The notes under the pieces are model-generated. The model saw only the letters and a list, made by a program, of their open reading frames with translations. It was not told the DNA's origin and made no database searches. A DNA stretch of 49,301 bases from a virus. This document shows positions 23,260-24,237 of this stretch, in pieces. The stretch lies in UHGV virus genome UHGV-0103780; one strand, given 5' to 3'. How positions within the stretch are numbered: the first letter of the stretch is position 1; each line of letters starts with the position of its first letter. A program made the position numbers and the translations under genes.

Positions 23260-23405
23260 CGAAAGTCATCCTTTATGCTGTATTTTTGAATTTAATTAAA
23301 AATGCTGCATAAAATAATAATGTATGCGTAGATGCTTGTACATAGCATTCTCTGCATGTTTGGTTCATTTTGCACGATTGAGAGTTACAAGGAGGGCACA
23401 AAAAA

Positions 23406-23420
23406 GCCCCGTTCAGGGGC
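23406..23420 (-). terminator. terminator after the GIY-YIG-like gene
   Basis: GCCCC-gttca-GGGGC followed (minus sense) by a T-run. Confidence 0.6.
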
Positions 23421-23427
23421 ATCAGTG

Positions 23428-24237
23428 TTATTTGCTAAGAGCAGCGAATAATCGTTCGAAATCGATAGTATCTATAGCACGCGTAAGCGCCGGAAGTTCA
23501 GCCTCAAAGTACCCGTGTCGATCGTAAAAGAAGGGACCGAAGAGCGAGGCATGTTGGATTCTACTTCGCCCCAGCCCGGACACACAGTTAAGCCCATTAC
23601 CGGCTAAAAGGCTAAAAAACTTCTCTGGATTATCGTGGTAAAGCTGGGAATCAATGGTGGCGGTTAACTCTTCCATAGGGAAGCACACCCGCCCTGTATC
23701 CCAGGGATATTTAGTCCGAAGCATAAACATTGCTTTCAGCAATTCACATTGAGCGCGGATCGCGTCCGGTTCATAGCCAGATATGGAGACATAAGCCACG
23801 TCCCTCATTCCTGCGTCATCTTTGAAAGTCACGATAGAAGTAACATCCAGCTCTTTTTCGAAAGAGCAAGCAGCATCTACTGGACGCTGAAGTAAATCAT
23901 TCGACTTAATGCGCTCGAGAATCCCTCCCCACATATCATTTAGATATTCGATATGAGCCAAAACCTTATCAAGACACTCTCGTGTAAACCATTCAGTATG
24001 CCCGCCACCGACGCTTTTCTCCCACGGCGCATTCCAGGGGAAAAAGGTTGCGTGTAAAGCCCGCTCAAGATTAACCATTGCCAAACGCGTACCACGATAG
24101 ACCCGTGAAAGCGCAAAATCGGGACTCACTTGTAGCCCTTTAAACCGTGCCAATGGACCACATGAAATGCCGATTTTAAAAGTATCTCCGTTCTCTGGCA
24201 CCAGAACGTAGAGGTAGTGTTGTTTCTCTTCTTGCAT
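23428..24237 (-). CDS. GIY-YIG / T5orf172-like domain protein, 269 aa
   Basis: N-terminal motif HYLYVLVPENGDTFKIGIS...R...E...GGHTEWF; sits between the downstream iterons and parA with its own terminator. Confidence 0.55.
   Translation of the reverse strand: MQEEKQHYLYVLVPENGDTFKIGISCGPLARFKGLQVSPDFALSRVYRGTRLAMVNLERALHATFFPWNAPWEKSVGGGHTEWFTRECLDKVLAHIEYLNDMWGGILERIKSNDLLQRPVDAACSFEKELDVTSIVTFKDDAGMRDVAYVSISGYEPDAIRAQCELLKAMFMLRTKYPWDTGRVCFPMEELTATIDSQLYHDNPEKFFSLLAGNGLNCVSGLGRSRIQHASLFGPFFYDRHGYFEAELPALTRAIDTIDFERLFAALSK

Follow-up and report, generated by a model that had tools for sequence, protein, structure and literature searches.

The replicon cassette and its resident gene

The window, i.e., the whole stretch of 49,301 nucleotides from virus genome UHGV-0103780, is a P1-like phage-plasmid of the RCS47/SJ46/JL22 type. 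The gene of interest, ORF269, is found within a replicon cassette with the following features (coordinates are those of the window).

23314 to 23342, minus strand: Ppar (-35 and -10 boxes) of the P1-type parAB operon, just outside the cassette, located by mapping the P1 annotation and by a promoter scan
23362 to 25611, no strand assigned: replicon cassette replacing P1 incC-repA-incA and flanked at either end by P1 homology (par side, 99%; DnaA-box/GATC/upfA side, 94.6%)
23400 to 23420, minus strand: intrinsic terminator, GCCCCTGAACGGGGC followed by TTTTTT, closing ORF269 and lying upstream of Ppar
23428 to 24237, minus strand: ORF269, an intact 269-aa gene with its ATG start at 24237, labeled "GIY-YIG nuclease family protein" in RefSeq
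23428 to 23922, minus strand: C-terminal domain of ORF269 (aa 106 to 269), with a predicted winged-helix core; the best structural matches are WH1 domains of plasmid Rep proteins, and no sequence family is matched
23923 to 24237, minus strand: N-terminal T5orf172/GIY-YIG nuclease domain of ORF269 (aa 1 to 105)
24272 to 24410, minus strand: five incA-like iterons spaced by about 31 bp, opposite in orientation to the origin iterons (repeat families D5/D6)
24490 to 24527, minus strand: two iterons in the origin orientation, directly after the repA stop codon (repeat family D2)
24530 to 25414, minus strand: repA of the p0111 type, a Rep3 WH1/WH2 initiator, with the ATG start as in RefSeq (294 aa)
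25496 to 25595, minus strand: five origin iterons with 21- to 22-bp spacing (repeat families D1/D3)

According to a BLAST comparison of oriented segments, the block without homology measures 2,250 bp in the window (23362 to 25611) and 1,491 bp in P1. Its left break falls exactly between the DnaA-box/GATC region shared with P1 and the first origin iteron, and its right break lies 69 bp beyond the stop codon of ORF269. The cassette thus delimited contains the five origin iterons, the Rep3-type repA, two forward and five inverted downstream iterons, ORF269, and the terminator. The half of oriR with the DnaA box and five GATC sites (25612 to 25710) is common to P1; therefore, only the iteron half of the origin has been swapped. 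The upfA-side flank (25612 to 27000) is less similar to P1 (94.6%) than the par side (99%). From parB to repA, the window is 99 to 100% identical to phi456, JL22, SJ46, RCS47, and several records labeled "P1," and canonical P1 records align from parB only up to 16 bp upstream of the -35 box of Ppar.

The window resembles P1 IncY and RepFIB-type Rep3 replicons in its order of a DnaA box/GATC region, origin iterons, repA, and forward and inverted control iterons. However, the P1-type RepA and the incA/incC iterons are absent from it. Its iterons are of the GTTGACTATGCGCGA type, unrelated in sequence to the 19-bp iterons of P1 (GATGTGTGCTGGAGGGA), and its RepA, an above-cut-off match to Pfam Rep3_C, shares only 41% identity with RepA of P1. 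The replicon type is p0111 (PMC9603915). The paper on JL22 already notes that this cassette replaces incC-repA-incA of P1 and calls the gene unknown; ORF269 and its position are thus present in both databases and the literature, with an unknown function there. The open reading frame listing extends repA to a TTG at 25450 (306 aa), compared with the RefSeq ATG at 25414 (294 aa).

Where the window cassette has ORF269, P1 has about 190 bp of spacer without a gene, between the last incA iteron and Ppar. Neither local DNA alignment with shuffles nor a permissive tblastn search gave any trace of an ORF269 remnant in this spacer. The initial annotation had placed the gene between the iterons and a parOP-like region, which agrees with the iterons found upstream and Ppar found downstream of ORF269. 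It had also regarded the gene as wedged into the repA-incA-parA order of P1. This part has to be revised, as the whole replication specificity cassette differs and ORF269 is its constant resident.

ORF269 joins a T5orf172 nuclease domain to a predicted winged helix

A T5orf172/GIY-YIG signature had been read in the 269-aa ORF from its letters. The quoted motifs are present, and a profile HMM search bore this reading out, with residues 8 to 85 matching Pfam T5orf172 (PF10544) at 26.9 bits, above the curated cut-off of 20 (E = 6.9e-6). The score for Pfam MUG113 was under its cut-off. The full-length match in PHROGs was phrog_2876 (E = 1.4e-194), whose function is unknown there, and an endonuclease family was matched more weakly. 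An NCBIfam scan returned no matches, and a PADLOC scan (PADLOC-DB v2) returned no defense families at E values up to 1.

An AlphaFold2 (AF2) model from a 48-sequence alignment (mean pLDDT, 85) predicted two domains, the nuclease domain and a separate winged-helix C-domain. The N-domain was modeled as a GIY-YIG alpha/beta fold similar to that of SLX1, a resemblance to SLX1 and GIY-YIG structure-specific nucleases that is at the fold level only (11 to 17% identity); ORF269 has neither an SLX4-type partner nor a RING/PHD domain. Residues Y10, K21, G23, R31, E58, and E82 are invariant in the 48 relatives. The conserved Tyr/Arg/Glu residues of the catalytic type are present in the N-domain, and by their spacing they would be the counterparts of Y6/R27/E75 of I-TevI. 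The structural matches of the N-domain in BFVD were phage T5orf172 proteins, including homing endonuclease genes (HEGs) with CapR homology and ICP1 ORF88 (i.e., Odn).

The predicted order of elements in the C-domain, helix 157-175, strand 183-187, helices 188-194/198-202, helix 204-212, strand 215-220, and strand 227-231, is that of a canonical winged helix. When modeled alone from a single sequence, the C-domain reproduced this order all the same, at a poor pLDDT of 54; the isolated model was therefore used for the secondary-structure order only. In a Foldseek search against the PDB, the top matches of the C-domain were RctB, the WH1 domain of MSBI1.176, RepE54, and pPS10 RepA, with E values of 0.02 to 1, i.e., without statistical significance. 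The sequence of the C-domain had no match in Pfam at E values up to 10 and none in the PDB by profile, and hhalign detected no similarity to five P1-like RepA proteins (probability, 0.2 to 0.3%). The model thus suggests a winged helix whose fold is nearest to WH1 of plasmid Rep proteins, a likeness of fold that does not extend to sequence.

The family occupies a conserved slot in P1-like cassettes

We examined the distribution of ORF269 by tblastn against PLSDB. The protein was found on 401 plasmids, always at 90% identity or more (372 from Escherichia, 23 from Salmonella, 4 from Shigella, and 2 from Klebsiella). The p0111-type RepA was found on 398 plasmids with nearly the same genus counts, so ORF269 is a constant passenger of the p0111 cassette. 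At the DNA level, it occurred in 412 of 5,426 complete E. coli genomes, and 414 of the 421 places were on plasmids. A scan of GTDB representative genomes gave a single locus, of the E. coli type. Within E. coli, the presence of ORF269 is tied to the difference of the whole cassette and not to a clean insertion.

More distant relatives came from larger protein collections. One divergent full-length relative (P0004, 44% identity) was found among 5.8 billion protein clusters searched by a word index. Two more (P0009 and P0011) were found among 1.84 billion representatives searched exhaustively with HMMER, together with about 150 proteins having only the N-terminal 100 residues or so in common. 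P0004, P0009, and P0011 are encoded on P1-like contigs (dmt, rdgC, upfC, upfB, ppfA ... parA, parB, gp23, gp22), each between a repA gene with iterons and parA. Among 15 billion proteins, the full-length family was limited to the rep-par slot of P1-like elements.

Three further cassettes, all absent from PLSDB, could be compared with that of the window. L003 has a p0111-like RepA (83% identical to the window RepA), L004 has an IncY-like RepA (83% identical to P1 RepA) with P1-type iterons, and L005 has a third type of RepA with iterons of its own. In all four cassette types, the ATG of the ORF lies about 20 to 35 nt past the last inverted iteron. The ORF as called in L003 (311 aa) starts within the iterons and has a spurious N-terminal "AYSQH" repeat; the conserved start is 41 codons downstream. 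L003 and L004, both from Logan assemblies, belong to a sister P1-like lineage whose gp23 is 80% identical to that of P1. Their backbones are near-identical (ParA, 100%; ParB, 98%; gp23, 99%), and the block in which they differ has the same two boundaries as that of the P1/p0111 pair in E. coli. This second lineage thus displays a p0111-like versus IncY-like cassette dimorphism (L003:4831-7019 versus L004:4656-6944) on a backbone that is 96 to 98% identical.

At this fixed site, the nuclease gene is absent in P1 and present in the IncY-like L004. P1 had been taken as the reference arrangement in the initial annotation, but comparison of the repA-parA interval put homologues in the same slot of other cassette types, one of them IncY-like; therefore, canonical P1 is the odd one out. 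The alternative considered there, a gene ubiquitous at this position with a known structural role, holds in its first part for p0111-type elements and fails in its second, as the gene has no known structural role. By parsimony, the ORF269 family has long resided in P1-like replicon cassettes and is missing from canonical P1. As the P1 spacer holds no detectable remnant, parsimony has to decide between loss from P1 and never having been there.

Iterons, terminator, and possible expression of ORF269

The iteron core nearest to ORF269 (24272 to 24286) lies 34 bp before the ATG, close to the distance of about 35 bp estimated earlier, and the gene does have a terminator of its own as had been claimed, with a G+C-rich hairpin and six T residues directly 3' of the stop codon. 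From the repA stop codon to the ORF269 ATG, the window contains neither a consensus sigma-70 promoter nor a terminator-like site. The corresponding intervals of L003, L004, and L005 had no consensus promoter and only two weak sites, a promoter match in L003 (9/12) and a terminator-like match with a low G+C content (3 of 10 G-C pairs) inside the iteron array of L004 (5922 to 5949). Because no consensus promoter or terminator separates repA from ORF269, expression by read-through from repA or under RepA control is plausible and compatible with the sequence. In the plasmid-prophage state, low-level transcription of ORF269 would probably come from the autoregulated repA promoter by read-through. 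Such transcription would cross the RepA-bound iterons and end at the ORF269 terminator, which would also shield Ppar.

The window further contains, 83 to 109 bp upstream of the ATG (24320 to 24346), a perfect 12-bp inverted repeat made of iteron halves (GACTACAGTCAA aag TTGACTGTAGTC). It is similar to the Rep-dimer operators of Rep3 plasmids and is not kept in L003.

ORF269 evolves fast and is recurrently inactivated

Between the window and L003, identity is 44% for the ORF (64% for the N-domain and 32% for the C-domain), compared with 83% for RepA and 89% for ParA, and DNA homology vanishes at the domain boundary of ORF269. The two cassettes have essentially the same iterons, so the 32% identity of the C-domains is a poor fit to simple recognition of the cassette's own iterons. 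Among six E. coli-type alleles, dN/dS was 0.29 for ORF269, 0.03 for repA, 0.00 for parA, and 0.06 for parB.

Polymorphism was analyzed in 44 IMG/VR loci, one GTDB locus, and the window. The 37 intact copies of ORF269 encoded 22 distinct proteins, compared with 5 distinct RepA and 2 distinct ParA proteins among 43 copies. Amino-acid-changing versus synonymous polymorphic codons numbered 31 versus 24 for ORF269, 4 versus 43 for repA, and 1 versus 70 for parA. In the 45-locus set, ORF269 was inactivated in 8 of 44 complete copies by at least four independent events, and about 80% of the copies were intact (L059, cut by a contig end, was not counted as complete). The inactivating events were W68*, S112*, Q228*, and a 1.76-kb replacement, at loci L012, L034, L038 to L043, L054, and L057. 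The S112* stop is found in frame in the homologue of pO111_2 (NC_013370; L012:2601-3410), the namesake of the p0111 replicon, and the Q228* allele is found on a 103,445-bp contig of the size of SJ46. Copies split by IS1 were also found (H218 and H219). These data indicate that the replicon can do without ORF269, on which purifying selection is weak. The earlier idea of an accessory, nuclease-type cargo gene is supported. A 168-aa "truncated" cluster (P0003, 229 members) was considered as a sign of common pseudogenization and left uncounted as a contig-end artifact, since its gene begins 103 bp into the contig.

Relatives of the nuclease domain are linked to Rep3 initiators

Several proteins that share the nuclease domain are fused to other DNA-binding domains. 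P0016 combines T5orf172 with Rep3_N, and P0046 (430 aa) combines it with Rep3_N and Rep3_C, with all Rep3 matches above the Pfam cut-offs; P0012 combines it with a MarR-type winged helix-turn-helix. A local jackhmmer search grouped P0016, P0037, P0046, and P0112 by their Rep3-like tails. These tails showed no similarity to the C-domain of ORF269 by hhalign (probability, 0.2 to 0.3%). A 7.9-bit hmmsearch match between the C-domain and P0016 was rejected as noise because the aligned segments are non-colinear.

At L013:3617-6293 (on a 58.9-kb ENA metagenome scaffold), a Rep3 initiator gene with three 32-bp iterons ahead of it ends 20 bp before the P0046 gene. Residues 176 to 430 of P0046 are 47% identical to WH1-WH2 of this neighboring initiator (E = 7e-64), and the last 165 nt of the two genes are 85% identical. 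P0046 looks like an Odn-type chimera beside the gene that it copied. At L015:2824-4816, the P0037 gene and the 3' end of another Rep3 gene overlap. P0112, a T5orf172-Rep3 fusion, is encoded on contigs of 2 to 4 kb with RHH and Fic/VbhA genes and no other rep gene, and may be the only Rep on its own contigs. In L014 (104 to 1771), a T5orf172 fusion is split from its Rep3_C part. One relative of the nuclease domain is on a mobilizable plasmid, and another, P0014, which has the nuclease domain alone in common, has Mrr_cat, WYL, and AbiD/F-like genes as its neighbors in a chromosomal island. A literature search found no paper tying GIY-YIG or T5orf172 genes to plasmid iterons or phage-plasmids.

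DISCUSSION

Our results add to the known position of this gene a slot that is conserved across cassette types, conflict-like evolution with recurrent knockouts, T5orf172-Rep3 relatives linked to rep genes, and, in the structure model, an initiator-like fold of the C-domain. We tentatively favor, at somewhat short of even confidence, the reading that ORF269 is a dispensable site-directed endonuclease, similar to HEGs or Odn, that serves its cassette in competition with related elements. ORF269, resident at the par-proximal edge of an exchangeable cassette (origin iterons, repA, control iterons, and the ORF itself), would combine catalysis by the N-terminal T5orf172/GIY-YIG domain with targeting by the C-terminal winged helix, whose predicted fold is nearest to WH1 of iteron-plasmid initiators. 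It would cut a related co-resident or incoming element, e.g., a cassette variant without the cognate allele or another iteron replicon, most likely in the manner of a free-standing homing endonuclease (T4 Seg or the ICP1 T5orf172 HEGs) or of Odn. The rival, once cut, would be excluded or converted by recombinational repair, and the cassette with ORF269 would be favored.

Two known systems provide the analogy. Odn fuses a T5orf172 nuclease to a copy of a Rep DNA-binding domain and cleaves iterons (PMC8263062), and T5orf172 HEGs are found at exchange boundaries beside essential genes (PMC10448857). The link of the nuclease clade to Rep3 mirrors the logic of the former and fits the placement of the latter. 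Odn (ICP1 Gp88) and other origin-directed T5orf172 nucleases (PMC8263062, PMC10448857) share with ORF269 the T5orf172 catalytic domain, through which ICP1 ORF88 was matched in BFVD, and a tie to modular, swappable replicons. In ORF269, this domain is paired, in a two-domain protein as in Odn, with a fold that is predicted to be of the initiator DNA-binding type, and close relatives of the ORF269 nuclease domain include genuine fusions to DNA-binding domains of Rep. In contrast to Odn, the nuclease is N-terminal in ORF269, so that the domain order is reversed, and the putative targeting domain is similar to Rep3 WH1, not to RepA_N, in fold only and without Rep sequence similarity. Moreover, ORF269 is encoded by the replicon itself beside its own iterons, rather than by a lytic phage attacking a satellite. 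With T4 Seg, I-TevI, and the ICP1 T5orf172 HEGs, ORF269 shares a catalytic N terminus of the GIY-YIG type and, as in I-TevI, a putative DNA-binding C terminus, apparently variable presence among close relatives, a position at the edge of an exchanged segment beside essential genes, alleles with frameshifts, nonsense mutations, or IS elements, and a fast-evolving targeting half. It differs from them by having no zinc-finger or CapR-type DNA-binding domain and in that its homologues apparently co-diverged with the cassette. The homologues track cassette types and thus suggest a long-established resident, not a HEG of recent arrival, and the swap boundaries may simply mark the points at which DNA homology returns, the ORFs having diverged too far for recombination. 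The HEG-less allele of P1 is not being displaced either: in a set of 55 elements, ORF-less IncY P1 was about as common as p0111 (31 versus 24; PMC9603915), which gives no sign of a sweeping drive.

A prophage "moron," placed in the cassette incidentally, that would degrade or nick the DNA of superinfecting phages or plasmids unrelated to it is an unlikely alternative that nevertheless accounts for several of the data. ORF269 is accessory, fast-evolving, often lost, and closed by its own terminator; it would be expressed in the lysogenic state if read from repA, and its relative P0014 is surrounded by Mrr_cat, WYL, and AbiD/F-like genes. A defense gene of this kind, however, would hardly be expected to be confined, as a full-length family, to the rep-par slot of P1-like elements, to draw no match in PADLOC, and to have several relatives fused or adjacent to Rep3 initiators and outside defense islands.

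Still less probable is that ORF269 has been domesticated as a non-cleaving regulator that binds the iterons or RepA WH1 and tunes copy number, handcuffing, or the insulation of Ppar. CapR, a domesticated repressor of the T5orf172 family (cited in PMC10448857), is a precedent, and a regulatory role would suit both the slot kept right past the control iterons in four cassette types and the predicted WH1-like fold, WH1 being the dimerization and iteron-binding module of Rep. However, the catalytic-type residues are invariant, elements with the W68*, S112*, Q228*, indel, and IS1 alleles persist as plasmids, P1 lacks the gene altogether, and constraint is far weaker than for repA or parA. A decaying selfish remnant, now inactive and carried along inside the cassette, would explain the high ratio of amino-acid-changing to synonymous changes and the 8 of 44 disrupted copies but is very unlikely, given that about 80% of the copies are intact, that dN/dS (0.29) is under neutral, and that full-length homologues with invariant catalytic-type residues are found across cassettes whose RepA proteins are 41 to 47% identical, a divergence that points to long-term retention.

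Beyond this locus, the favored reading of ORF269 as a site-directed endonuclease could be extended, speculatively and with doubt on our part, to a class of replicon-linked nucleases in P1-like phage-plasmids and unrelated metagenomic Rep3 replicons. Such proteins would use an initiator-like winged helix to dock at the iteron origins of rivals and cut them, serving as weapons of incompatibility or as a gene drive for whole replication cassettes, and would help explain the recurrent IncY/p0111 dimorphism in two P1-like lineages. P1 is a textbook model of plasmid replication control, and most of the P1-like cassettes sampled carry, directly past the control iterons, a conserved nuclease gene that has never been studied. 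Should ORF269 prove to be an endonuclease aimed at origins or alleles, plasmids would have their own counterpart to the Odn and HEG systems of phages, and "Rep-mimicking nucleases" would play a part in plasmid incompatibility as well as in phage-satellite conflicts. There would then also be a mechanism by which the phage-plasmids that spread ESBL and mcr resistance genes compete and exchange cassettes. If it is not, ORF269 is still a dispensable passenger of the p0111 cassette and not a defining part of the replicon.

Two labels attached to these elements in databases look like annotation errors. The phi456 record (OR339795) calls ORF269 "terminase small subunit," and MOB-suite types these P1-like plasmids as "IncHI1B" (PLSDB typing of L009 to L012).
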